Of a stretch of DNA of 64,000 bases, positions 4,169-62,713 are shown in pieces. Below the pieces are notes generated by a model. The model was not told the origin of the DNA. It did not search any database and saw only the letters and a program-made list of their open reading frames with translations. The DNA comes from Bacteroidaceae bacterium (GTDB lineage: Bacteria > Bacteroidota > Bacteroidia > Bacteroidales > Bacteroidaceae), in assembly GCA_017448965.1 (NCBI GenBank), contig JAFSKK010000058.1:961-64960 (forward strand). The letters are read 5' to 3'. Position numbers and translations under genes: made by a program. Within the stretch, counting starts at the first letter, position 1. Each line of letters begins with the position of its first letter.

Positions 4169-5482
4169 TCAACTGAAAAGAATTGTTGCTCCTGGTTCCA
4201 ACACGTTCGACTTATTGGAACCCATATCTGTGAGTTGACGCAATGTCTCTTTTGAACGTTTGTAAGTAGGCGATGTCTCCACCATGCTGATGACATCTTC
4301 GTTGTCGAGGTCTTCCTCTTTGAAGATATAACTATAGATGGGACGACGGATGATGCTGTGGTTCTTGTCAGGACCATAGATGGTTTCGCGACGATGTGCA
4401 CGTTCAGCCTCCAGTTCCGCTTTCTCTGCATCACGCTGCTGCTGCTCCTTATCACGGGCCATCAGACGGTTACCAAGTTCATCAGAGTCGATGTCCTCCA
4501 CACCGAAGCCTGTGGCAAGAATGGTAATCTTCACCTGATCAGTCAACGACGGGTCAACAGAAAGACCCCACTTGGTCTCGACATCATCGCGCTTCACCTT
4601 GGCCATAAACTCATGCACCTCGTTCATCTCGTCCATCATCAGAGCGCTATTACCCTCTCCTGCCTCATCAGGCACGGAGATACGGATAAGTATCTTGTTG
4701 GCACGATAGATGTCGTTGTTGTTGAGCAATGGGGAATTCAAAGCATCGCTGATACCCTTCGTAACGCGGTTTTCGCCCGAACCATAACCCGTACTCATGA
4801 TGGCCACACCACCATCTTTCAACACTGTGCTGACATCGTTGAAGTCGAGGTTGATGATACCATGCATGGTGATGATTTCCGCGATAGAACGTGCCGCATT
4901 GCAAAGCGTGTCGTCTGCCTTTGCGAAGGCCTTGATGACGGTAAAGTCCTGATAAATCTCACGCAGACGCTCATTGTTGATAACAAGCAAAGCATCCACA
5001 TTCTTGCTCATCTCCTCCACACCGTCGAGTGCCTGGTCAATCTTCTTGTTACCCTCCCAACGGAATGGAATGGTCACAATACCCACGGTGAGGATGCCCA
5101 TGTCCTTGGCCGTCTTGGCAATGAGTGGTGCGGCACCAGTACCAGTTCCGCCACCCATACCAGCCGTAATGAAGGCCATCTTCGTTCCATCGGAAAGCAT
5201 GCTCTTGATTTCCTCGATAGACTCTTCTGTGGCCTTACGTGCACGGTCAGGACGGTTGCCCGCTCCAAGACCTTCACTACCCAGCTGAATCTTTTCTGGT
5301 ACAGGAGAGTCCTGCAACGCCTTGTTATCCGTGTTACACACGACGAACGTAACATCGTGGATACCTTCATTGTACATGTGGTTGACTGCATTGCTACCGC
5401 CGCCGCCAACACCAATCACCTTAATGATGCTTGTGGTGCCCTTTGTAAAGTTGAAAACACCAATATTATCGTCTTCTGCCAT
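4169..5482 (-). CDS. ftsZ: cell division protein FtsZ
   Basis: 437 aa with the tubulin signature GGGTGTGAAP and N-terminal IKVIGVGGGGSNAVN. Confidence 0.97.
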   Translation of the reverse strand: MAEDDNIGVFNFTKGTTSIIKVIGVGGGGSNAVNHMYNEGIHDVTFVVCNTDNKALQDSPVPEKIQLGSEGLGAGNRPDRARKATEESIEEIKSMLSDGTKMAFITAGMGGGTGTGAAPLIAKTAKDMGILTVGIVTIPFRWEGNKKIDQALDGVEEMSKNVDALLVINNERLREIYQDFTVIKAFAKADDTLCNAARSIAEIITMHGIINLDFNDVSTVLKDGGVAIMSTGYGSGENRVTKGISDALNSPLLNNNDIYRANKILIRISVPDEAGEGNSALMMDEMNEVHEFMAKVKRDDVETKWGLSVDPSLTDQVKITILATGFGVEDIDSDELGNRLMARDKEQQQRDAEKAELEAERAHRRETIYGPDKNHSIIRRPIYSYIFKEEDLDNEDVISMVETSPTYKRSKETLRQLTDMGSNKSNVLEPGATILFS

Positions 5483-13500: not shown

Positions 13501-14760
13501 TTATCTAATTTTTAATGTAATGATGGTGATGGCGGCCAACAGGATGGTGACAATCCAGAAGCGCGTCGTAATCATCGACTCAAACAACAAACCCTTAGGA
13601 CGCTTGATGAGGTAGGTGACCCCCTCTTCCATCCTGTGACGATAGTGGTCGTGGAACGGCGCACGCTTGAACACACGCCACTTCTTCCCCCGCTTGTTGC
13701 CCTGCTTAGCATAGGCAATCTGGAGCATCACCGAAAGACTTTCCATCAGGAAGATGCCGCACAAGATGGGCAGCAACAGTTCCTTGTGAATGATGACCGC
13801 CGTGACGGCAATGACACCACCGATGGCCAAACTGCCCGTATCGCCCATGAACACCTTAGCAGGATATGCATTATACCAAAGGAAACCGACCAATGCACCC
13901 ACAAAGGCACTAAGGAAGACCACAATCTCCTCTGAGCCTGGAATATACATCACGTTCAGATAGTCGGCAAAACGGATGTGACCGCTCACATAGGCAAGAA
14001 TACCCAACGTGACGCCGATGATGGCAGAGTTGCCTGCACACATACCGTCCATACCATCGTTCAGGTTGGCCCCGTTGCTCACAGCAGCAATGACGAAAGT
14101 GGTCACCAGCACAAAGAGAATCCAGCCACAAGCACGTTTCGTCTTGCCATCCTTGATGAAGCTGAACACCTCGTAATAGTCGATGTTGTTGCTCTTCACG
14201 AAAGGCACCGTTGTCACCGTGCTCTTACGCGCTTCACTCTTATGATACACCTCCACCTTATCGCCAATTTCACGCTCCACATTCTCACGCACCACAGCGT
14301 CAGGACTGAGCCACAACGTCAGGCCTACCGCAACACCAAACACCAACTGCGCCAACATTTTCCATCGTGGCGCAAGACCATCCTTGTTGCCCGACAACTT
14401 GATTTTGTCATCCAGGAATCCGATGACACCAAAGAAGGCAATGGTCACAATCAGCAACACCACGTACACATTATTCAATCTGCCAAACAGCAAAGCCGGC
14501 ACAATCACCGCTGCGAGAATGACGACACCACCCATCGACGGCACACCTTTCTTCTGCACCCCGTATGGGTCGATGGCTGCATCACGAGCCTCCTCAATAT
14601 GCTTCTTCTTTCGCATATACTTAATGAAGTATTCTCCTGCCACCATCGAGATGAACAGCGAAAGAATGAGTGATAGCAAAGCCCGGAAGGACACATAACC
14701 AAACATGCCCGCTCCCGGGATGTCAAACTCTTGCAGATACTTGAATAAGTCGTATAACAT
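13501..14760 (-). CDS. mraY: phospho-N-acetylmuramoyl-pentapeptide transferase
   Basis: 419 aa, polytopic. Has MraY motifs KKGVPSMGG, NLNDGMDG, FMGDTGSLAIGG and HHH-like FHDHY. Confidence 0.95.
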   Translation of the reverse strand: MLYDLFKYLQEFDIPGAGMFGYVSFRALLSLILSLFISMVAGEYFIKYMRKKKHIEEARDAAIDPYGVQKKGVPSMGGVVILAAVIVPALLFGRLNNVYVVLLIVTIAFFGVIGFLDDKIKLSGNKDGLAPRWKMLAQLVFGVAVGLTLWLSPDAVVRENVEREIGDKVEVYHKSEARKSTVTTVPFVKSNNIDYYEVFSFIKDGKTKRACGWILFVLVTTFVIAAVSNGANLNDGMDGMCAGNSAIIGVTLGILAYVSGHIRFADYLNVMYIPGSEEIVVFLSAFVGALVGFLWYNAYPAKVFMGDTGSLAIGGVIAVTAVIIHKELLLPILCGIFLMESLSVMLQIAYAKQGNKRGKKWRVFKRAPFHDHYRHRMEEGVTYLIKRPKGLLFESMITTRFWIVTILLAAITIITLKIR

Positions 14761-14815
14761 GATTCTCTAATCAATATGGTAGTTACTAATCGTCTATGTT
14801 TACCGCCCGTTTCTA

Positions 14816-52625: not shown

Positions 52626-53133
52626 CATCTATTTCGGAACTACCCACGTCAGAGCCACATTTTTTCATCTGGCTTGGGAGATTTGTCCTCATTTCGCCAT
52701 CGTGAGAGATGTATTTGCACTTCTTGTTCACATTGATAGGTGTGCTCTTCGGAAAGGCGATGCTATACGCCTTGTCGAGGGCATTCAGGTTCACCTTCCG
52801 CATGCCGATGCCCAGTTTCACGCAGACGATGGCTCTCAGCAATTCGCGGTGCTTGCGTGGATAGAGTTTCGGCGATGGCAGTTCATCCCATCCGCACACC
52901 TCGTCCTCTTCGTTGAGCACGTTCGATGCCTGAAAGCACACCTCCCAAATGAAGTCATCGTCGGCTTCACTTCCGAACCACGATTGCAGCACACGGCGGA
53001 TGCAGAACCGCCTGTACTGCCCCTTGAAGAGGCGCCTTGTGCGCTCCAGCCGAAGCCAGAGCTGCACAAAGCATTCTTGAGTATTTTGAATATCAATCAT
53101 AGCGGTAGCAAATTTTTCACCTTTCATTTTCAC
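52621..53133 (-). CDS. hypothetical protein (island gene)
   Basis: 170-aa ORF with no recognised domain. The first 11 codons are encoded by the heptamer microsatellite, so MIDIQNT at 53100 is an alternative start. Confidence 0.45.
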   Translation of the reverse strand: MKMKGEKFATAMIDIQNTQECFVQLWLRLERTRRLFKGQYRRFCIRRVLQSWFGSEADDDFIWEVCFQASNVLNEEDEVCGWDELPSPKLYPRKHRELLRAIVCVKLGIGMRKVNLNALDKAYSIAFPKSTPINVNKKCKYISHDGEMRTNLPSQMKKCGSDVGSSEIDV

Positions 53134-53178
53134 TTTTCATTTTTCACTTTTCACTTTTCACCTTTCACTTTTCACTTC
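53113..53178. repeat. heptamer microsatellite, about nine units of (G)TGAAA(A/G) on the minus strand
   Basis: TTTTCACC TTTCAT TTTCAC TTTTCAT TTTTCAC TTTTCAC TTTTCACC TTTCAC TTTTCAC. It lies between the stop of the 766-aa gene and the next ORF. Confidence 0.85.
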
Positions 53179-53180
53179 TT

Positions 53181-55481
53181 CTATACCTTCCCACCGATTT
53201 TCTGTTTGTATTCAGGCGTCTTGCAGAAGCGTCCGCAAACATCATCATAGGCAATGTATCCTCGGTTCTGCCATACTCGCAGGGTGCTTTCACCGTCACC
53301 TTTACGACCTTGCTGCTGGCGCATCTGGTGGTACTGCTCACGGGTGAACTCATCAGGCAGCAACTCCAGCAGGTTCTGAGGTCCCGACTGACGCTGAATC
53401 TCCACTTCCTCGCGAAGTTCACGTTCCAGTTGCTGACCGAAGTAGAGCATCTTGCACCAGAGATTGTACGACTGGCTCCAGCGGACGAAATCGGCAATCT
53501 CGTGCGACCACTTGTAGCCGTGAGCCACGTAGAGCACCATTCCCTTCAGCCAGGCAATCACGTTGGCACGATAGCTCAAAACTCGGTAGGCTTCGCTCTC
53601 ATACAGTCGGGCGGCGTCCTTGTTCTCCTGCTTCATGTCGAGCGACAGACGCTTGGCTTGCTGACATTCTATCAGCCCGTTGGCAGCCTCCAGACGGTCG
53701 ATATAGGGCTTCAGCTCATTGGCAAACAGATGGTCGTAGATGCCCAGGATAGGTGCCGTGTCATCGTCGTCATCTGAATGGATGATGGTGCTGATGTCGA
53801 GTCGGCTCACCGTGCCGTCATTGACCATTCGTGCAAAAAACTTCCTGGCATTGGGAGGGGTCGTCGAGGCGTTAAAATTCCATCTCAGAGGGGCAATTCC
53901 CGACACCGAATCCGCACCTACACGCTCCTGCCCTGCATCGGAGTTGTCAAACGCTTTTCTGATCAGCAACCCCACCTCATCGACCGTTCCCTTCGAGGTC
54001 ACCTTCTTCAAGGCCTCAATCTCGTCCACGATGGTGTAGATGAAACGCTGGCCGTTGTTGTGGGCATCGATGATGCGCTGGTTGAAGACCGCATCTGTCA
54101 GGTTGTCGATGAGCATCTGGATGCAGATGTCTGTCGGACGCGGGGCTTTCTTCTGCTTCGCACCCGGATTCTTCTGCTTCCAATCGGCCTCGCGCTGGCG
54201 GTTGGGGATGTCGCGCTGCTTGATGTCCTCCATGATGTACTCGATGGGCTTCTTGATGGTGCCCTTGCCGATACTCTGACGGCCAATCAAGACATTCATG
54301 AAGGTTGCCTCATGCTCCACGTTGTCCCAGTAGCGGAACTTCACGCCGTGCAGGTGAACACCCAGTGCTGGGAACACCGCATTAGCTACAGCAGGCTTGT
54401 AGAACCAGGGGACGTTCTTCGTCAGCAACTTCACCAGTGGCGGCAACTTCTTCGGCATCGGAGGAGGTGTGGTGAGCGTACCGCCACAAGCCTTCACACC
54501 TGCCTGCGACTTCAATGCCTGCAACACCTGCTTCAATCGGTACGGCATACCCTTCTTCGGCTCCTTCAGCGCGTTCTCGATGGTCTTGCGCCATTCGGCC
54601 ACATCCTCCTGGTTCTGGGTTCCCCAATAGTTCGGAATGATCTGCATCATCTTCTCCAACGAATATCCGCAGATGCTTCTCAGCGTCACAGCCAGCTCGA
54701 ACGTCAGCACATTGCGGTCGCCATCCACAGGCTCCTTGCCGTCGTTGAACAGCTCCCAATACTTCTGAATGATGTCCTTAAACAGCATCCCGTTGTACCT
54801 CGCGTCAGGGTCATAGGGAACCGATGTCAGAGGGCTGATGTTTGATGTCTGAGAGACAGCCTTTTCGGAACTGTAACACTGTAACACTGTAACATTTTCT
54901 GTTTCTCTCATCTCCACAGGTGTTGTATCAAAAATCTCGTCGTCCAGAAACAGCAACTCATCGTCATCAGCAGTCGTTGTGAAGAACACCCTCGTGATGT
55001 CCTTGGCACCCTCGTCGAACTTCACGCCCAGCACGTCGCTTGCCCACCGCAGGTTCTCCTCCTGTGAGAGGTCCTCATGGCGACGGAACACCAGATGGTA
55101 GCCCTTCGATGCCGAACGCTCCAGCATGAGCAACCCCAATGCCTCCCGTTTTTCCATCACGAGTTCTGGCACACACTTCATCTTCTCTTCCATCCAAGCC
55201 TTCTTTTCCTCCTCCGAAAGCCCTGCGGGAGCCACGAAGTCGATATCCATGCCCACCGAACGCGATGCCGTCTTGCACCCCTTCAGGGCACCATCCTCGC
55301 CGGGGATGCACGAGTAGTTCATCTGAATGAGCCGATGCTTCTGCCGGGTGTCGCCCTCTCTCACCGTCTTCAGAATTGCCTTCTGTTTCTCACTGCCACG
55401 CAGACGCAGATACTCGTCTCGTGAGAGGACGGGGCGCATCACCTTCGCCCCATCCTGATATGTTACAAAATATACACTCAT
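53181..55481 (-). CDS. VirE/BT4734-like primase-helicase-type protein
   Basis: 766 aa. The N-terminal roughly 190 aa follow the BT4734/VirE_N pattern (...REGDTRQKHRLIQMNYSC...SRSVGMDIDF). The central region has a P-loop-like LIGRQSIGKGT resembling VirE/D5 NTPases. Confidence 0.5.
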   Translation of the reverse strand: MSVYFVTYQDGAKVMRPVLSRDEYLRLRGSEKQKAILKTVREGDTRQKHRLIQMNYSCIPGEDGALKGCKTASRSVGMDIDFVAPAGLSEEEKKAWMEEKMKCVPELVMEKREALGLLMLERSASKGYHLVFRRHEDLSQEENLRWASDVLGVKFDEGAKDITRVFFTTTADDDELLFLDDEIFDTTPVEMRETENVTVLQCYSSEKAVSQTSNISPLTSVPYDPDARYNGMLFKDIIQKYWELFNDGKEPVDGDRNVLTFELAVTLRSICGYSLEKMMQIIPNYWGTQNQEDVAEWRKTIENALKEPKKGMPYRLKQVLQALKSQAGVKACGGTLTTPPPMPKKLPPLVKLLTKNVPWFYKPAVANAVFPALGVHLHGVKFRYWDNVEHEATFMNVLIGRQSIGKGTIKKPIEYIMEDIKQRDIPNRQREADWKQKNPGAKQKKAPRPTDICIQMLIDNLTDAVFNQRIIDAHNNGQRFIYTIVDEIEALKKVTSKGTVDEVGLLIRKAFDNSDAGQERVGADSVSGIAPLRWNFNASTTPPNARKFFARMVNDGTVSRLDISTIIHSDDDDDTAPILGIYDHLFANELKPYIDRLEAANGLIECQQAKRLSLDMKQENKDAARLYESEAYRVLSYRANVIAWLKGMVLYVAHGYKWSHEIADFVRWSQSYNLWCKMLYFGQQLERELREEVEIQRQSGPQNLLELLPDEFTREQYHQMRQQQGRKGDGESTLRVWQNRGYIAYDDVCGRFCKTPEYKQKIGGKV
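54859..54894. repeat. ACTGTAAC octamer-triplet repeat, copy A (inside the primase-like gene)
   Basis: GCCTTTTCGGAACTGTAACACTGTAACACTGTAACA. It encodes the linker VTVLQCYS and matches 61343-61380 in the same orientation. Confidence 0.9.
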
Positions 55482-55505
55482 ACGTCATTCACAGTTTTAA
55501 GAGTT

Positions 55506-55889
55506 TTACCACTGAGTCTCCGTGCGTCTCGTCTTGATGAACGCTGCCTGTTCCTCCGCTTCCTCCCGATGCAATGCCTCGATGAGAGCCTTGCCCAGTT
55601 TCTTGGGGAATCGCAGCAGGAAAATCACGCTCTCCTGCGTCTCCTTCACCTCGCCATGTGCAGTCGTGAAGAGCCTTGTGTAGCGGCTTCCGCTGTCCTT
55701 CGCATACGGGTGAAAATGGCTTGTTCCCGATTCGTCGGTCACCATCCGTCCCTTCTGACTTGCTTCGTTACCTCCCACCACGATGTGCTGTCCCAACTCG
55801 AACGCACAAGGAAAGATGTTGATGCCACCGTTCTGGCAGAAAACTGTCTGTGTCTCCATCTGGAGATTGTTAATGAAAATGTTGTTCAT
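55506..55889 (-). CDS. hypothetical protein
   Basis: 127-aa ORF, 24 nt upstream of the primase-like gene on the same strand. No recognised domain. Confidence 0.45.
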   Translation of the reverse strand: MNNIFINNLQMETQTVFCQNGGINIFPCAFELGQHIVVGGNEASQKGRMVTDESGTSHFHPYAKDSGSRYTRLFTTAHGEVKETQESVIFLLRFPKKLGKALIEALHREEAEEQAAFIKTRRTETQW

Positions 55890-56130
55890 GTTGTGATACT
55901 TCTAATTTTAATTTGAGAATTAAAAGCATCGTGCGCACGTTGCCGTAGTCAATGAAGATGTGTTTGCAACCACATGCTTCATGTCTGTGAGAGTTTGTCG
56001 GACCATTTCAAACTGATGGCGCAAAAAAACATTGCACCCCCGAAAGTCAGAAGCCATTTGTGTGTGCTTCTTTTCCTTTCGACGGTGCAAAGTTCGGGAG
56101 AATAAAAAATGTGTTTGTTTTAGTAAAACT

Positions 56131-56163
56131 CACAAAAATGTTTTAGTAAAACAACATTTTGTG
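56131..56163 (-). terminator. hairpin terminator at the end of the R-M-linked operon
   Basis: CACAAAAATGTT / AACATTTTGTG stem, 3 nt after the stop at 56167, with a U-containing tail on the minus strand. Confidence 0.45.
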
Positions 56164-56166
56164 AAA

Positions 56167-57015
56167 TCAGTCGTTTTGGGGTAGATTTTCCAATAGTTCA
56201 TCAAAATAATCCTGTATGTCCGATTTGTTTCGTTTATATGCGGCATTCAATAATTGTCCCACATTCGTTTCCTTTTTATTGAAAGCATACCGCATAATTT
56301 GTTTAATGGTCTTTTCTTTGTTTTTTACAGGTTTGCCTTTTCTGTCAACAAACCATTTTGCTTTATACATACAATCGAGCACCACAAGCATGGATGTTTC
56401 TTTGCCATCCGCTATTTTCAAATCAGCGGTTTCAACTCTGGGAGAAGAATCCAGAAGAGACACCTTACCATTGTCCACAGCATTTTCAACCATCTCTTCA
56501 ATCGTATCAGACAAAAACACATCACTCTGTATGTATTCTATAACAACGGCTCTCAATTTCTCTTCGCCTAAACGATAGACATTAGGCATGAATGTATTCC
56601 TCAATTCTTCCATACAGGCATCATGCTCATCCATCTGTTCCATTAGGCACAAAGCAAGGGTGTTATGTAAAGACTTTTTTGTCACAATCAGACACATGGA
56701 AACACAATACATCACCACATTCACAGCAAGAGCCAGTTCCTTTTCTTCTGTTCCATCATCTGACAGATCTCTAAAATCATTGTACATTCTGTCCCAAAGA
56801 TTTCCCATGTTGAAAACAGCCTTGCTCTCATCTTCCTTGATGTCATCAAGAACGGCAAGACACTCCATAAAAACCTCCTCTGCAGAAAGGCGGAACTTTG
56901 CCATCTTTCTACAGAAATGCTCGCAGGGATTCTTCAGGGAAAGATAGATGACATGCTCGCCATATTCATTTCTGACCGCCTCTCTTGCGCTTCTTCTTAG
57001 TCGGTTCCTCATCAT
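56167..57015 (-). CDS. hypothetical protein (operon gene 5, no recognisable domain)
   Basis: 282-aa ORF that overlaps gene 4 by 50 nt. An alternative ATG at 56904 (MAKFRL, 246 aa) would leave a 61-nt gap. No P-loop or nuclease motif seen. Confidence 0.55.
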   Translation of the reverse strand: MMRNRLRRSAREAVRNEYGEHVIYLSLKNPCEHFCRKMAKFRLSAEEVFMECLAVLDDIKEDESKAVFNMGNLWDRMYNDFRDLSDDGTEEKELALAVNVVMYCVSMCLIVTKKSLHNTLALCLMEQMDEHDACMEELRNTFMPNVYRLGEEKLRAVVIEYIQSDVFLSDTIEEMVENAVDNGKVSLLDSSPRVETADLKIADGKETSMLVVLDCMYKAKWFVDRKGKPVKNKEKTIKQIMRYAFNKKETNVGQLLNAAYKRNKSDIQDYFDELLENLPQND

Positions 57016-57940
57016 TGTATGTTTCTGTTATATGCCTCACGCTTTCCAACCATTGCATGATGGAAAAATCCCCTCTGTCCGTTTTCGTTCCAAAGGAAGT
57101 TTGACCAGAGATAAATTCCTTCAACATTTCGTCGCCCAAAGTCACCATGGCCTTCGTCTCCTGCCCGTGACGATACACTCCATACATGCGGAAATGCACG
57201 GCAATGTTATATCCGTTGTCACAACACAAATTCACCATCTGAGCCATATCTTCCTGTGTCCTGTCCAAATGCAAAGTGCCATCCTTCGATGCCTCAAAAT
57301 GCATTCCTGCTTTCTTCGCCCTGAAAGCCTTAGCCAAATAGTGCATCATCTCCAGACGTTTCTGCACATCGTCTGGGTCATCGACCGATTTCACCTTTTC
57401 GGAATCGGGGAAATCAAACACCACCTTCCTGACGGTATCGCCAAATTCCGTCTGCTTGCCGACTGCATCCCAGAAATCCTCGGCATTCATCTTGGCCTTC
57501 AACTCAAGGTGAATCCCGTAGTCATGTTCCAAAGTGCTGTTGAAAGATTCCTGCAAGATGTCACGCACCTTGTCGGGCTTGCTGTCGAAAGCCGCAGAAC
57601 GCTCGATGGCAATCAAACCGACATCAGCACGGTTATAAACCAACACATAACAGCCTGGCTGAGCCTTTTCCGTCAGTTCCTCATGCTTCTTGGGAATTTT
57701 CACATTCTTCTCATTGCAGACAAATAGAGCCATTGCGTCCCCATACTTCCGTTCCACATCACATTCCAGCGGCACCTGTTCACCCTTCCTGTTCGTCTTG
57801 CACACCTTCACATTGCCTCCAACAAACAGTGTGGAGAAATATTCATGCGCCTTGTCAATGGTCTTCACACCATCCTTGCCAAACACATCTTTCTGTCCAG
57901 CCTGTTCAAAATGAATTTTGTAAATTGCAAATACCGCCAT
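56966..57940 (-). CDS. hypothetical protein (operon gene 4, no recognisable domain, basic KKKRKRGGQK tail)
   Basis: 324-aa ORF starting 4 nt after the stop of the HpaII-family gene. No known motif recognised. Confidence 0.6.
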   Translation of the reverse strand: MAVFAIYKIHFEQAGQKDVFGKDGVKTIDKAHEYFSTLFVGGNVKVCKTNRKGEQVPLECDVERKYGDAMALFVCNEKNVKIPKKHEELTEKAQPGCYVLVYNRADVGLIAIERSAAFDSKPDKVRDILQESFNSTLEHDYGIHLELKAKMNAEDFWDAVGKQTEFGDTVRKVVFDFPDSEKVKSVDDPDDVQKRLEMMHYLAKAFRAKKAGMHFEASKDGTLHLDRTQEDMAQMVNLCCDNGYNIAVHFRMYGVYRHGQETKAMVTLGDEMLKEFISGQTSFGTKTDRGDFSIMQWLESVRHITETYNDEEPTKKKRKRGGQK

Positions 57941-57944
57941 ATAC

Positions 57945-59027
57945 CTATTTCTTAAACCTTATCTGCAAGTTCAACTTAATATATACCTCACCGTCTTCTC
58001 CTCGATACAAAGCCCCGAAATGGTAACGGCTGCGACTCGCGCGCTCAAAACGCGTATTATTATATAAATAATCTTCCACTTCGTTCCGATTGTAAAAATG
58101 ATAGCAAACGATGTCGCCATCCTTTTTCACAACCAAATAGCCACCATTGGCATCATAACGTCCAGTCCATTCCTTTGCCGGTGTCATACCTAGAGCAGCA
58201 TCTAGCAAAAGTACTTTCATCTTGTGCTCATAAAAAGTATAGACATTCTTTCCTGTAAATCCAAAGGGATTCTGTTTTGCCACCAGTTCTACTGCTTCTT
58301 TGATAGAAGATGTGGATGCTGGCATACTGTCGCAAATCAGACACATTGCAATGAATTCAGGCATACATAAATCGAGAAAAAGCAGATTATTCTTGAAAGT
58401 TTGATGTTCTATGTCTGAATACATCAACTGTAATCCCTTATCTTGGATTTTCTTCATCCTCGGAAGATGGTCTTCTATCGCATTAACTTCCCGTATCTCA
58501 TCGTCCGTTATCTGTCCTCCCTCTACACGATAGCGAATATTCGTTGTTTCTCCAGCATTGAGCAGAGTTGAAGCACTCCCCAATTGTGACTTTATGCTGA
58601 AACCAAGCAAGGGAGTCATATTTGTGCGTAAATCGTGGATAACAATGTGGATGTCCGCTTTGTCTTTCGAAGGGGCTTTCAGTTTTGTACACCCAATTTG
58701 GTTCATGAAACACTCTGTAGCGGGAATTGCAAAAGCACTTTTACTCCCTGCCTTTATCTCGTCAAGCAAGTTGGCTGATTCTTTCATGAACTTATCCATT
58801 GACACACGAACAAACTCTTTGCCATCTTCATCCACCACAACTATGTTCTGCTCACTGCAAGGCTTGTACTCATATTTTTTACTTTCTTCACGAATCACAT
58901 TCAAGATGGGATAATATAATTCCAACTTGTTAAGATTCTCGTCTCCAGCATGGACTTTTCCTTCTCCGAGGAGTCGGAACAATGTGTAAATCTCACTCCA
59001 TTCTCCTTTATTTCCTGTCAATGACAT
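57945..59027 (-). CDS. HpaII-family type II restriction endonuclease (putative)
   Basis: 360 aa. The N-terminal GNKGEWSEIYTLFRLLGEGK motif and the size match my memory of the RE_HpaII family. It also has a PD...SxK-like site (DIHIVIHD...GFSIKSQ) and sits next to a C5-MTase. Confidence 0.55.
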   Translation of the reverse strand: MSLTGNKGEWSEIYTLFRLLGEGKVHAGDENLNKLELYYPILNVIREESKKYEYKPCSEQNIVVVDEDGKEFVRVSMDKFMKESANLLDEIKAGSKSAFAIPATECFMNQIGCTKLKAPSKDKADIHIVIHDLRTNMTPLLGFSIKSQLGSASTLLNAGETTNIRYRVEGGQITDDEIREVNAIEDHLPRMKKIQDKGLQLMYSDIEHQTFKNNLLFLDLCMPEFIAMCLICDSMPASTSSIKEAVELVAKQNPFGFTGKNVYTFYEHKMKVLLLDAALGMTPAKEWTGRYDANGGYLVVKKDGDIVCYHFYNRNEVEDYLYNNTRFERASRSRYHFGALYRGEDGEVYIKLNLQIRFKK

Positions 59028-59075
59028 ATCTTTCCATCCTATTTTCTAAGAGTTATGACTAATTTATCGTTATGG

Positions 59076-59714
59076 CTACTGGAATTTGTCCATTTTCTTA
59101 TCCTTTGGGGTAGGATGAATGTTTACCAGATTTCCCTCCACAACATCAATCTTTGTAGACTCGCAGAACTTCATACTTTTCAATTTTGTGACGAGTTCAT
59201 CTATCTGTTTTGTGTTACAATCAATCACATCATCAAGACCGATAAGCAGACCTTCCGGGATTTTGGCTTTTGTGGCCCTTGCTTCTTGGGCATCCAATGT
59301 CAACAGATAACTTTGTGCCTTGCGATGAACATATTTCAATGCAATGGCTTCAAGGTCAGCCTGCTTGTATCTTTCACGAAGGCTTGTCTTTAGGGATAGA
59401 CATACAGGCCGTTCTTTCGAATAAAGAATGGTGTCAAACTCTATATTGGGAACAAAAGCCACTTTTGCCTGTGTGTAAAACGGCAGGATTCCCTCACGGT
59501 ATAGAAGAGTGTATATCACTAATTCGAAATAACCTCCCCCAATTGAATTGTTTTTATTTTCACATGCTTGATATTTGTCCCAATAAAATTTCACGTATTC
59601 ATGGGGATAAGTGTATTTGACATCGCAAAATGTCTCATTGGGAGTCATACTCTCAAAGAGTTTTGAGATTTCACCTTCATTTTTGATAAAACCGTTTTCT
59701 AATAGTACCGACAT
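59076..59714 (-). CDS. small PD-(D/E)XK nuclease with the SxK-x3-RER signature of CCGG-family restriction enzymes (putative)
   Basis: 212 aa from MSVLLENG (ATG at 59714, 11 nt after the MTase stop). Motif: EFD-x14-SLK-TSL-RER. The ORF-track start at 59870 would overlap the MTase by 145 nt. Confidence 0.5.
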   Translation of the reverse strand: MSVLLENGFIKNEGEISKLFESMTPNETFCDVKYTYPHEYVKFYWDKYQACENKNNSIGGGYFELVIYTLLYREGILPFYTQAKVAFVPNIEFDTILYSKERPVCLSLKTSLRERYKQADLEAIALKYVHRKAQSYLLTLDAQEARATKAKIPEGLLIGLDDVIDCNTKQIDELVTKLKSMKFCESTKIDVVEGNLVNIHPTPKDKKMDKFQ

Positions 59715-59725
59715 AACCTTTGTGT

Positions 59726-61042
59726 TTATAAAATCCCTAACATTTGTAATTCTCTCTCCGCTGTTGCTTGTATAGCTGGAATAGCCACAGAATTGCCAAA
59801 CTGCTTGTAAGCAGAAGCATCGGCCACAACAATTCTGAATCTGTCGGGAAATCCCTGCAATCTGGCCCATTCACGGGGAGTCATTTTACGAATTCCGTCA
59901 CGATTAACCTCGCCCTTGATATGAGTCTCTGGTACATAATTAGTCAGACGATTATCCACCACCAAATTGCACTCTCTCCCCATTCCTCCAACAACAATAG
60001 CATTTGCCACTCCATCAATATCAATAATCTTGTATCCAAAACCATGCCCAGCCGCTTCATGTCGTGCGCGATGACGTTTCAAAGTTTCAATATACACTGT
60101 AGAAAGATAATATTTCACCGAAACCTCGTGTTCTTCCATCACATCACGGAAACGTGGGCGTAATGCGCCAGGTGTAGTAGGCTCCGGATAACGAAATTCA
60201 TCAATGGCAACATGCAAGTCCTTTCTGAAACCAATGATATAAATACGTTCACGATGCTGAGGCACCCCAAAATCCATCGCGTTCAAAATCCGAGGAGGTA
60301 CAACATCATATCCTGCATCATCCAAATGCTCAAGGATTGTCCTCAGCGTTCTGCCTTTGTCATGAATGGCCAATCCTTTCACATTTTCAAGAAAGAAAGC
60401 CCTCGGCTGATGCTTCCGCAAAATATCTTCAATCTCAAAAAACAGCGTTCCCCTAGTCTCATCCTTAAAGCCGAGCCTTCTGCCAGCCAAAGAAAACGCC
60501 TGACAAGGAAAGCCAGCACAAAGGATGTCAAAATGCTCTGGAATATACTTTTTCGTGATGTCCTTCGTGATGTCACCAAAGGGCATCTCCCCATAGTTGG
60601 CAAAATATGACTCCTGTGCCTTTGCGTCAAATTCCGAAGAATACACGCACTTGCCACCCAGATTCTGCATGGCGATACGAAAACCTCCAATGCCTGCAAA
60701 CAAATCAATGAAAGTGAACTTAGGGTGCTCGGGAGCAGGGAATGGAACATCGAAGAAATCGTTGAACAAATCATATTGCAAAGGGTCTTCTGCCACATGC
60801 CACACATCCTCGTCAGAAGCCACATCCACAACATCCTGCCGCACATGTTTCCTTGCCAAAAAGTCACGGACAGCTTCTACAATCTCTCCACGCTCAGCAT
60901 CAGTCCCCCCATTATGCAGATACTGGCTCAGCACCGCCATCTGCGTTTCATAGGACAATTCTCCATACACCTTCATGCCCGTTGCCTCATCCACCTCTTC
61001 AGGGAAATCCGTCAATTTTATGTTTTCTTTCTTCTTTGCCAT
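59726..61042 (-). CDS. DNA (cytosine-5)-methyltransferase with about 100-aa N-terminal extension
   Basis: Motif I FIDLFAGIGGF, motif IV GFPCQAFS, motif VI ENVKGL, motif VIII QHRERIYI, motif X QFGNSVAIP. Confidence 0.93.
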   Translation of the reverse strand: MAKKKENIKLTDFPEEVDEATGMKVYGELSYETQMAVLSQYLHNGGTDAERGEIVEAVRDFLARKHVRQDVVDVASDEDVWHVAEDPLQYDLFNDFFDVPFPAPEHPKFTFIDLFAGIGGFRIAMQNLGGKCVYSSEFDAKAQESYFANYGEMPFGDITKDITKKYIPEHFDILCAGFPCQAFSLAGRRLGFKDETRGTLFFEIEDILRKHQPRAFFLENVKGLAIHDKGRTLRTILEHLDDAGYDVVPPRILNAMDFGVPQHRERIYIIGFRKDLHVAIDEFRYPEPTTPGALRPRFRDVMEEHEVSVKYYLSTVYIETLKRHRARHEAAGHGFGYKIIDIDGVANAIVVGGMGRECNLVVDNRLTNYVPETHIKGEVNRDGIRKMTPREWARLQGFPDRFRIVVADASAYKQFGNSVAIPAIQATAERELQMLGIL

Positions 61043-61065
61043 TTTGCAATAGTCTATTTGAGTTG

Positions 61066-61235: not shown

Positions 61236-61270
61236 ACCGTGTTACAGCGTTACAGTGTTACAGTTCCAAA
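61236..61270. repeat. ACTGTAAC octamer-triplet repeat, copy B (inverted)
   Basis: CACCGTGTTACAGCGTTACAGTGTTACAGTTCC is the reverse complement of GGAACTGTAACACTGTAACGCTGTAACACGGTG. Confidence 0.9.
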
Positions 61271-61342
61271 AACAATCATGGAAGGCAAAAATAAACTCTA
61301 TATTTATATATAAATATAGAAGTATATTTAGGGGTTTGGAAA

Positions 61343-61380
61343 GGCCTTTCGGGAACTGTAACACTGTAACAAGTGTAACA
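61343..61380. repeat. ACTGTAAC octamer-triplet repeat, copy C
   Basis: GGCCTTTCGGGAACTGTAACACTGTAACAAGTGTAACA. With copy B it forms an inverted pair around an 85-bp AT-rich spacer containing CTATATTTATATATAAATATAG. Confidence 0.9.
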
Positions 61381-61476: not shown

Positions 61477-61688
61477 CATCGTCGAAAATGAGAGGGGCGC
61501 GGAGACGGTGTGCAGGGGGAAGGGTGCACGGCATGCACGGGGAAGCCTGCACGGCACACGCGGAGAGGCGGTGACGGGGTGAGCGATGGAGTGAGAATGG
61601 TTGGATGTGTGGAGTGAGAATGGGTTCGAAAATGTTGTTTAATCAGAAAAAGGAATTTAATCAGAAAAACGGAAAGGAGGACGGAAAG

Positions 61689-62189
61689 ATGAAGATACGG
61701 ATGTCGAGGTATTATGGCGACGGGAGCGTGACGAAGTCGGTCATGCGGATTGAGAGCGAGCGGGGCGGTTTCGAGCCGATGGAGTGCGAGGCGCGGGAGA
61801 TGGCTTTCAAGGTGTACACGGAGAAGTTCAGGGGCAGCAGCGGGTATTGTGTGCCGGAGGGGACTTACACGATGCAGCCGAGGTGCACGGAGTTTGGGGT
61901 GATGACGCTGCGCACGAAGGACATGAGGGGGCATGCGAACGTGAGCATCGGATGGAGCTGGACGAGGCAGACGAAGCATGACACCATTCTGGTGGGATGG
62001 AGCGACGGGAGCCAGGCGGCTGAGGTGAGGCGCATCACGGGGAGCAGGGAGTGCTTCGACGAGCTGACGAAGAGGGTGTATGCGGCTTGGGCGGATGGCG
62101 AGGAGTTCACGCTGGAGATTGTGAATGAAGACCCTCTCTGTCCTGACGGACATCTCCCCCATAATGGGGAGACCATGCGGAATGTTTAA
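61689..62189 (+). CDS. hypothetical protein, possibly DUF5675-like (phage L,D-peptidase-like fold)
   Basis: 166 aa from MKIRMSRYYG. It loosely matches the pattern T.S...IE....F...E......G.CVPEGTY.......F.......T.....H..V.IG.......T.ILVG. It has strongly G-ending codons, and its last roughly 18 codons are encoded by a family B repeat fragment. Confidence 0.4.
   Translation: MKIRMSRYYGDGSVTKSVMRIESERGGFEPMECEAREMAFKVYTEKFRGSSGYCVPEGTYTMQPRCTEFGVMTLRTKDMRGHANVSIGWSWTRQTKHDTILVGWSDGSQAAEVRRITGSRECFDELTKRVYAAWADGEEFTLEIVNEDPLCPDGHLPHNGETMRNV
62130..62180. repeat. partial family B element (half copy of the etfB/etfA insert)
   Basis: GACCCTCTCTGTCCTGACGGACATCTCCCCCATAATGGGGAGACCATGCGG compared with the reverse complement of 28723-28773, GACCCTCTCTGTCCTTCGGACATCTCCCCCGTAATGGGGAGAGCCATCCGG. 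Confidence 0.8.
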
Positions 62190-62275
62190 AAGGAAAAATA
62201 TATGTTGTTGCAACGGCTATATAAGTGTTTAAAAATGAATGTCTAACAAGTTTTAAAAAGAAAGGAGAAACGATT

Positions 62276-62713
62276 ATGTCTATTGTAGTTCGAAAGACGA
62301 AGATGAAGCTCACTTATCGTGAGGGAAAGCCCGAGGTGTACAAGATGCGCCAGCTGACTTACCAGCCGCTCACGTTCGAGCAGTTGCTGTCGGAGATTCA
62401 GGTGGTGGGTGTGAATCCCGCGCAGACGCAGGCGGTGGTGACTGCCTTGCTGAACCGAATGGTGCAGTATCTGAACCTCGGCCACGCGGTGCAGCTCGAC
62501 AACTTCGGCACCTTCAAGGTGTGCACCAAGTGGAAGGTGGCTCACACGCTGGAGGAGTGTACGGCTGACACGAACGTGGTGAAGAACCTCCGCTTCTACC
62601 CCTGCAAGGCGCTGCAGACGTTGCTGCGCGAGCAGACCATCAAGGTGAACGAGGCGGTGTCGGAGCAGGAGCCTGACAGCGGCGGTGGCGACGATGACGG
62701 CGACGGTGAGTAA
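62276..62713 (+). CDS. Bacteroidales HU-related DNA-binding protein with acidic tail
   Basis: 145 aa from MSIVVRKTKMKL, with AAGGAG 9 nt upstream. The pattern ...LTFEQLLSEI......QTQAVVTALLNRMVQYLNLGHAVQLDNFGTFKV matches the HU_rel family. Confidence 0.75.
   Translation: MSIVVRKTKMKLTYREGKPEVYKMRQLTYQPLTFEQLLSEIQVVGVNPAQTQAVVTALLNRMVQYLNLGHAVQLDNFGTFKVCTKWKVAHTLEECTADTNVVKNLRFYPCKALQTLLREQTIKVNEAVSEQEPDSGGGDDDGDGE

Follow-up and report, generated by a model that had tools for sequence, protein, structure and literature searches.

Two overlapping genes of uncatalogued families on the inner side of a defence hotspot in Bacteroidales

Genes A and B and their overlap

The 64,000-nucleotide (nt) stretch of a Bacteroidaceae bacterium genome analysed here (GCA_017448965.1, contig JAFSKK010000058.1, positions 961 to 64,960 and hereafter called the window) carries on its reverse strand a pair of overlapping genes, which we call A and B, directly downstream of an HpaII-family restriction endonuclease gene. 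The endonuclease gene (57945..59027, reverse strand; PF09561, E 1e-131; PADLOC REase_II) ends with a TAG at 57947-57945 and is followed after 4 nt (GTAT) by the ATG of gene A at 57940. Gene A (56966..57940, reverse strand), recognised as an open reading frame (ORF) with homologues, stops with a TGA at 56968-56966 and encodes a 324-amino-acid (aa) protein of an uncharacterised alpha/beta family with a disordered, basic C-terminal tail. Gene B (56167..57012, reverse strand) encodes an all-helical protein of 281 aa when read from a conserved ATG at 57012, or of 282 aa from 57015. A preliminary description made from the sequence alone had set a 324-aa ORF 4 nt past the HpaII-family stop and a 282-aa ORF overlapping it by 50 nt, and both coordinates check out, on the same strand, with an overlap of 50 nt from the first ATG of the ATGATG at 57015 and of 47 nt from the second. 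In comparison with related loci the HpaII system is one interchangeable insert, and A and B have no specific tie to it.

A total of 56 related loci were collected, all of them found through A, whose relatives occur in metagenome-assembled genomes (MAGs) of Prevotellaceae and Bacteroidaceae from gut and rumen. A word-indexed search returned 34 close homologues of A, and an exhaustive search with a hidden Markov model (HMM) returned 736 clusters (50% identity) at a cut-off of E<=1e-3, of which 475 remain at E<=1e-10 and 175 at E<=1e-30, nearly all with lengths of 300-350 aa, while a profile search returned 20 relatives of B. Both genes are under purifying selection, with ratios of nonsynonymous to synonymous substitution rates (dN/dS) of 0.01-0.15 in A and 0.09-0.18 in B. 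Together with the homologues and a constant relative frame, these values (0.01-0.18 overall) place the reality of both ORFs far beyond chance.

The two proteins nevertheless belong to no known family. Neither window protein has a significant match in Pfam, PADLOC, NCBIfam or PHROGs, and PADLOC-DB v2.0.0, including its candidate PDC systems, gives 0 families at E<=0.1 for the two. Nothing significant was found for 61 diverse members of the A family in Pfam, PADLOC or PHROGs, the PADLOC matches being three isolated single-member ones at E 8e-4 to 4e-3, nor for 32 B proteins in Pfam, and searches of PDB sequences with single proteins and with profiles came back empty. Among P-loop and ATPase families the sole trace for the pair is a non-significant one to KaiC (E 0.056), and toxin and antitoxin families gave no sequence or fold match for either protein. 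A reading of A as a PD-(D/E)xK or other nuclease finds no Pfam match, and its IIDNR...AIER resembles D...ExK by eye only. No account of the A-B pair was found in the literature on Bacteroidales loci of this type. A and B are thus two uncatalogued families.

The AlphaFold2 model of A (predicted local distance difference test, pLDDT, 78.8; predicted template-modelling score, pTM, 0.77) runs from an N-terminal beta-meander through an alpha/beta region to the disordered tail. It has no fold match in the PDB by Foldseek (best E 0.02, TM 0.19), and in BFVD, which was searched for A only, its fold has just two matches, both uncharacterised metagenomic phage proteins (E 5e-13 and 4e-7). Partial OB/Sm-like matches, to Hfq and PriB, have a probability of 0.4-0.6 and were set aside as too weak to use. 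The model of B (pLDDT 81.9) consists of helices only: residues 1-184 form one domain, which a disordered linker joins to a small C-terminal one. The whole model likewise has no fold match in the PDB by Foldseek. On these models both folds are apparently new. The sensitive homology and structure searches that the preliminary description had called for therefore lead to no characterised family for A or B, and its statement that the pair bears no known signature is upheld at the level of both sequence and fold.

The most conserved polar feature of the A family is a P-x-C-x-V-I-I-D-N-R motif, whose Asp (D102) is the only polar position at least 90% conserved in the 61 diverse members. The strongly basic tail of the 324-aa protein, which the preliminary description had pointed out, ends in DEEPTKKKRKRGGQK and is kept across the family with a consensus of DEEPTxKKRKR. 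In B the N-terminal domain (residues ~1-184) is conserved and the last ~80 aa are of several unrelated, exchangeable types. A (dN 0.04) and the beginning of B are common to loci L019 and L033, which differ in the C-terminal type of B, so the swap occurs within the B gene.

B starts inside the 3' end of A, out of frame, by 41-92 nt in all 43 loci with a detectable B. Across 40 distinct loci the overlap is 41 nt in one, 44 in five, 47 in 18, 53 in seven, 56 in two, 59 in one, 62 in one and 92 in five. These lengths, with a mode of 47, are all 2 modulo 3, with B offset by +1 nt from A, and hence the relative frame of the two genes never changes. In the window the 47-nt dual-coding overlap occupies 56966..57012 (reverse strand), where the DEEPTKKKRKRGGQK tail of A and the MRNRLRRSAREAVRN N-terminus of B are encoded by the same bases. 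The DEEPTxKKRKR tail and the conserved N-terminus of B are two readings of one purine-rich stretch, B's ATG falls within the Asp-Glu codons of A, and where the tail of A is longer B still starts at the same motif. B was undetected in four loci (L046, L048, L049 and L050), which have a 415-419-aa variant of A or its remote relative. This subfamily (L046, 8001-9248; L048, 5779-7038) has ~100 aa of extra C-terminal region and no overlapping B, and still adjoins type I or DpnII restriction-modification (R-M) genes and lies upstream of small ORFs, DUF3987 and Toprim. That the extension is a fused B is unsupported (B-family profile E 0.008-0.08).

The N-terminal segment of B, M-x-x-R-L-x-R-x-E-R-x-A-I-R-x-x-Y, is kept in nine close and ~30 distant homologues, and most homologues start at the position of the second Met (the ATG at 57012), for which reason this ATG is taken as the start of B. 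An alternative start 61 nt into the non-overlapping part of B had been offered at 56904 (M38); an ATG exists there, but the 37 residues upstream of it (MRNRLRRSAREA..NEYG..IYLALKNPCEHF) are conserved in every homologue and exclude its use. The mRNA around the start of B folds worse than 197 of 200 shuffles (z +1.74), which rules out the classical form of coupling in which a hairpin masks the second start. A programmed frameshift fusing A to B, an idea raised by the invariant frame, is also ruled out, each B having its own conserved ATG, and no conserved slippery motif is visible in the overlap beyond coding constraints. B is instead predicted to initiate independently in an open, A-rich context inside gene A. 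Bacteroidetes rarely use Shine-Dalgarno sites, which such initiation would fit. The earlier label of a translationally coupled pair thus survives in the loose sense of an obligatory overlap, without hairpin-mediated coupling or frameshifting, and the overlap is ancient as well as obligatory. With at least 475 clusters of A at E<=1e-10 and a dual-coding overlap of this unusual length and age, A and B merit description as families.

Defence genes upstream of gene A

More than 20 unrelated defence families are represented immediately ahead of A, by genes that almost always share its strand. The type II systems among them include HpaII, SacI, EcoRII (twice), BpuJI-type, DpnII, another type II REase, RE_endonuc and LlaJI-like enzymes as well as a MutH-like nuclease with a C5 methyltransferase, and other R-M cargo consists of type I HsdR or HsdS (several loci) and a type IIG enzyme. 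Outside R-M proper there are AbiH (twice), AIPR together with R-M, a Schlafen/HATPase_c_4 ATPase, Fic-HTH, ResIII/TnsA-like, HNH and AAA_14/DUF4143 genes, and MazG with an SLFN helicase and an AAA_11/12 helicase. At L024 no cargo can be recognised, and A is preceded by NQR genes, an iteron array and small ORFs. R-M genes still adjoin A in remote subfamilies with a changed gene order (L046, L050 and L054). The median distance between A and the stop codon before it is 72 nt, with 18 of 40 loci at <=50 nt; compact junctions between cargo and A are therefore common, and the 4-nt spacing to HpaII is one instance with an interchangeable partner.

In the window the cargo consists of three reverse-strand genes. 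Upstream of HpaII lies a 212-aa ORF (59076..59714), a gene call that is also 212 aa long in identical loci, and upstream of that a C5 cytosine DNA methyltransferase (59726..61042; PF00145, E 4e-94; TIGR00675). The 212-aa product has sub-threshold similarity to the nuclease domains of BsaWI (E 0.0014) and EcoRII-C (E 0.09), and could be a second CCGG-related nuclease-like subunit or the remnant of one. At other loci the cargo slot holds genes with no Pfam or PADLOC match (L002, 3204-3803; L030, 19-1161; L034, 71-2253; L036, 608-2681; L045, 1796-2533); their position makes these unannotated genes candidates for defence genes not yet described, and searching upstream of A is a route to more of them.

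The tight spacing had been taken to tie the pair functionally to the nucleases, as a dedicated accessory of the HpaII system (a sensor, effector or regulator) coupled to the nucleases or the methyltransferase. The 4-nt gap on the same strand agrees with this, as does the joint inheritance of R-M genes and A-B, which form a block of 98-100% identity in two genomic contexts. However, close relatives of A (77-80% identity) stand behind SacI or EcoRII instead (L014 and L025), the upstream partner can be any of the more than 20 unrelated systems or none at all, and cargo type and B C-terminal type show no partner-specific co-variation, so that a dedicated HpaII role is very improbable. From the earlier picture of two unknown proteins beside restriction genes, what stands is a real, co-inherited and overlapping pair in a defence neighbourhood; the link to HpaII does not, and a 4-nt gap to a nuclease does not make A-B an R-M accessory. 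A generic sensor, effector or regulator role of the pair in defence is possible.

Two known kinds of R-M-associated gene are relevant here. PrrC is tied to one type I system (EcoprrI) and has ABC-ATPase and anticodon-nuclease domains. As a separate-function gene embedded in or abutting an R-M operon it is the model that an HpaII-accessory role would imply, but A-B differs from guards of the PrrC/RloC type in being partner-independent and in matching no ABC-ATPase or anticodon-nuclease domain. Nor do the two proteins resemble the controller (C) proteins of type II R-M systems, being 324 and 281 aa long with no HTH match, encoded downstream of the endonuclease gene and found with unrelated partners.

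Composition sets A and B apart from the backbone of the locus. In the window the methyltransferase, 212-aa ORF, HpaII, A and B genes have a GC content of 0.39-0.47 (A 0.473, B 0.398), compared with 0.51-0.57 for the primase gene (0.547), the 127-aa ORF, the HU gene (0.554), the DUF5675-like gene and the chromosomal flanks (0.54). In 15 of 16 loci the GC content of A and B is below that of the downstream replication module, with means of 0.442 and 0.422 against 0.526. Positions 52713-61045 of the window, from the methyltransferase to a 170-aa ORF, are 92% identical overall to loci L009-L012, which occupy a different chromosomal site: the window copy lies beside gliding genes of the gldL/M/N type and the other inside a capsule/glycosyltransferase locus. 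Within the alignment to L009 a 5-kb block from the methyltransferase ATG to ~120 nt past B is 98-100% identical, and identity falls to 62-96% across the small ORF and the primase gene (87.6% for the primase protein). The low GC content and the co-movement with R-M genes place A-B with the cargo, and these alignments imply that the pair can move with it as one block. Pointing the other way, the window and L014 are collinear at 77-79% identity from A through the primase gene with the R-M system alone replaced, and the order of A-B, small ORF and replicase holds across four replicase families.

The upstream edge of A-B is sharp. In pairs of loci with different cargo the homologous DNA begins between -13 and +6 nt from A's ATG, for example at -3 in L015/L016 (86% identity), -9 in L019/L033, +6 in the window and L014 and -1 in the window and L025. 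Taken with the edge past B, these breakpoints make A-B a module that is bounded on either side by a recombination junction and sits innermost in the hotspot. One could therefore ask whether A-B is merely a passive hotspot anchor or cargo-capture module, a conserved right-hand homology arm for the exchange of defence cassettes, or, more speculatively, whether its products carry out a new kind of recombination or homing by which cassettes come to lie beside primase loci. Such a role would account for breakpoints exactly at A's ATG in many pairs of loci with different cargo, for the second class of breakpoint ~120 nt past B, for the short cargo-A gaps and for the occurrence of a 92% identical block in two chromosomal contexts with no island integrase. 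On the other hand, the strong purifying selection on A and B means that the proteins themselves are needed and not the DNA alone, neither protein is similar to any recombinase, transposase or nuclease, and ordinary homologous recombination also predicts sharp breakpoints at a conserved gene start. We regard an anchor role as quite improbable.

The replication unit and the sequences past gene B

Downstream of B the composition and content of the locus change. Beginning 15 nt past the B stop lie two 13-bp GTTTTACTAAAAC palindromes (56140-56152 and 56117-56129; 56117..56152, reverse strand), 23 bp apart and followed by a T-rich run, which are the only matches to this sequence in the 64-kb window and form a terminator-like inverted repeat, a candidate operator or both. 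They are followed by GAACTTTG (56088..56095, reverse strand), a near match to TAnnTTTG, the Bacteroidetes -7 promoter consensus. On the strength of that consensus, known from Bacteroides, it is a candidate promoter of the operon formed by a 127-aa ORF and the primase gene. A TAnnTTTG(C) box stands at the equivalent place in most related loci, and a hairpin with z < -2 follows the B stop in 17 of 29 distinct loci, often with a T-run. Scans of the island for Rfam families and for sigma-70 and terminator consensus sequences gave nothing above background.

The 127-aa ORF (55506..55889, reverse strand), the first gene of the downstream replication unit, matches no known family, and the second encodes a 766-aa BT4734-like (VirE_N) replication protein of the primase-polymerase/helicase type (53181..55481, reverse strand). 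It is 37% identical over 673 aa (E 1e-129) to a 744-aa protein of L005 that carries PF08800, and has one weak phage-labelled match and no plasmid match. The literature treats BT4734-like enzymes as mobile-element replicases and also records them next to defence systems (PMC5862659, PMC11724360). At the related loci the replicase is of one of four types: BT4734-like primase-polymerase/helicases of 750-880 aa, D5_N/DUF5906 (L047), DUF3987 with Toprim_2 (L048), and DUF3987 or a 425-aa protein together with a DnaG zinc-ribbon primase and DUF4248 (L024 and L051).

On the other side of the hotspot lie two divergent forward-strand genes with the GC content of the host (0.55-0.57), a DUF5675-like gene (61605..62189; PF18925 at 24.7 bits, just below the cut-off) and an HU-HIG DNA-binding gene (62225..62713; PF18291, E 2e-14). 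Between these and the cargo, an inverted pair of CTGTAACA octamer iteron arrays with a 74-nt AT-rich spacer (61241..61371) forms a candidate origin, and a third array (54859..54894) lies inside the primase gene; the window contains five matches to the octamer where 0.02 are expected. Analogous, element-specific octamer arrays are present in six other loci (L009, L014, L019, L023, L026 and L027), where the distal copy is in or just after the primase gene. The layout of the locus is thus ori-like octamer iterons, promoter, variable defence cargo, A-B, hairpin, second (putative) promoter, small ORF and primase/helicase. At L009 all three iteron sites have GCAAC instead of GTAAC, and A is identical and B 98.6% identical to those of the window; A or B as the factor that gives iteron-binding specificity is thereby ruled out.

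This layout recalls phage P4, whose alpha primase-helicase binds octamer iterons at ori and crr (Flensburg and Calendar 1987; Ziegelin et al. 1993). In both cases octamer iterons occupy two sites separated by several kb, of which one adjoins or lies within the primase-helicase gene and the other is inverted around AT-rich DNA, and the iterons are element-specific and change in concert at all sites. In contrast to P4 the replicase families here are unrelated to alpha, A-B has no P4 counterpart, and replication from the iterons is putative. The pairing of a primase-helicase replicase with two separate sets of octamer iterons is shared with P4-like satellites as a layout, by analogy and not by homology to P4 alpha. 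As for the integrase, helper-exploitation genes and presence in virions or viromes that also mark a P4-like satellite, the stretch between the chromosomal flanks (at 52.6 and 62.8 kb) contains no integrase, and relatives of A are absent from INPHARED and PLSDB (tblastn of A) and from IMG/VR (pattern scans). The analogy suggests that cargo, A-B and replicase lie inside one replicon-like unit and that loci with HU and primase genes are, or once were, autonomous replicons. Such loci are widespread in Bacteroidales, and the iteron layout provides a P4-like model for their replication. HU and primase loci that lack A-B are probably common.

The inverted repeats past B raise a further question about the pair. 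GTTTTA[C/G]TAAAAC occurs twice, 22-23 bp apart, in all five loci with B C-terminal type 2a, and a perfect palindrome, TGTAGTACTACA, occurs in four loci with the other main C-terminal type. The repeats follow the C-terminal type of B and not the family of the small ORF (L026 compared with L027), and between L026 and L034 the intergenic piece from B to the small ORF is better conserved than the flanking coding DNA. The co-variation would fit a DNA-binding domain with its operator and, equally, a terminator that physically adjoins the 3' end of B.

The first of these possibilities leads to a model in which A-B would be the sensor-regulator switch of the island or its cargo, comparable in its logic to the replication-control modules of satellites and plasmids. 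The C-terminal domain of B would bind the inverted repeats and control read-through into, or the promoter of, the operon of small ORF and primase, or else the cargo operon, and A would sense a signal. The co-varying repeats and the conserved non-coding stretch past B speak for it, as do the fixed order of A-B, small ORF and replicase across the four replicase types down to ~25% identity in A, the presence of A-B without cargo at L024, the want of an enzymatic motif in either protein and one C-terminal type of B that looks like a helix-turn-helix (HTH) by eye only. Against it, none of the 32 B proteins matches an HTH or winged-helix model (the best hit, FtsK_gamma at E 0.016, is to one member), the repeats are also plausible intrinsic terminators whose contiguity with the 3' end of B can by itself explain the co-variation, the GC content of A-B is that of cargo and not of backbone, the pair travels with the cargo between the window and L009, and its near identity in these two loci despite different iterons shows that it is not an iteron-recognition factor. 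We consider a regulatory switch of this kind unlikely, though it is the chief rival of the reading preferred below.

Possible function of the pair and comparison with known systems

Our preferred reading, which we hold tentatively and at less than an even chance, is that A-B is an autonomous conflict module, that is a stand-alone anti-phage, abortive or addiction-type system, and not a subunit or accessory of HpaII. It draws on the cargo-like composition, on co-transfer and co-transcription with defence genes, on the R-M adjacency retained in L046, L050 and L054, and on the fast modular evolution of B. The pair is a self-contained, Bacteroidales-restricted two-gene module in the innermost slot of a defence-gene hotspot, and on this reading it would accompany whichever defence genes sit upstream. 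A, the alpha/beta partner with the basic tail, and B, an adaptor with its specificity set by the exchangeable C-terminal domain, would act jointly as a non-enzymatic complex, and the internal start of B in an unstructured, purine-rich stretch would tie its synthesis to the mRNA of A.

Several observations weigh against a conflict module. All loci were ascertained through A, so that the enrichment of defence genes is inseparable from the anatomy of the hotspot and is not an unbiased statistic. Neither protein has a catalytic or toxin-like motif, and residue 102 of the window's A is Tyr, and Tyr or Trp in its closest relatives, which argues against an essential catalytic role for D102. The absence of relatives from the phage, plasmid and IMG/VR collections means that A-B has not turned up in the range of settings usual for free-standing defence systems. 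With all four types of replicase A-B is invariably the last element ahead of the replication operon, a fixed position that is unusual for an independent defence system and fits an island-linked function equally well.

A bolder form of the conflict module, which we think improbable, would make A-B an unrecognised two-protein anti-phage or back-up immunity system of Bacteroidales with two new folds, co-transcribed 3' of the R-M or Abi operon of the hotspot and acting as a second line of defence, for instance by sensing failure or inhibition of the upstream system; the locus would then represent a new class of iteron-replicating, primase-encoding defence islands. If this were true, the host islands could be mined for further unknown systems.

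Among known two-gene systems, type II toxin-antitoxin and abortive pairs share with A-B two translationally linked genes, one of them evolving faster with domain swaps, and a place in variable regions of mobile elements. They differ in that the A and B proteins are large (324 and 281 aa) and show no known fold of toxins or antitoxins, the genes overlap by 41-92 nt as against the usual 1-4 nt, and no autoregulatory operator lies upstream. CapH/CapP and BrxR/CapW have recognisable HTH/WYL or metallopeptidase domains and are encoded upstream of, or divergently from, the operon they control. Like A-B these are small modules found beside many unrelated defence systems, whereas A-B matches no such domains and sits at the 3' end of the operon.

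Defence hotspots in small replicating elements are a known kind of thing, since hotspots of P2 prophages and P4 satellites carry interchangeable anti-phage systems (R-M, Abi and others) between conserved flanks (Rousset et al. 2022, PMC9122126). As in the loci described here, a short variable region lies in a small replicating element in which the cargo changes and the flanks stay collinear. The present loci differ in lying on Bacteroidales chromosomes, in showing no integrase, capsid-redirecting or cos functions within the window, in having replicases that are BT4734-like, DUF3987 or D5-type, and in an inner flank that consists of the low-GC A-B pair, itself movable with the cargo. New to the catalogues searched are the host clade, the backbone of replicase and iterons, and A-B itself. 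The defence systems of Bacteroidales and their mobile carriers are poorly charted, and A-B provides a reproducible landmark for the inner edge of a defence hotspot in gut and rumen members of the order.

Directly past the primase stop in the window (53100-53180) is a tandem TTTTCAC(T/C) repeat preceded by TAGCGGTAGCAAA, of which no second copy was found in the window. At L009 the same sequence forms a 38-nt inverted repeat, 92% complementary, that flanks the island from HU to primase (5091-5128 and 14740-14777), and these inverted repeats may be the ends of the island.

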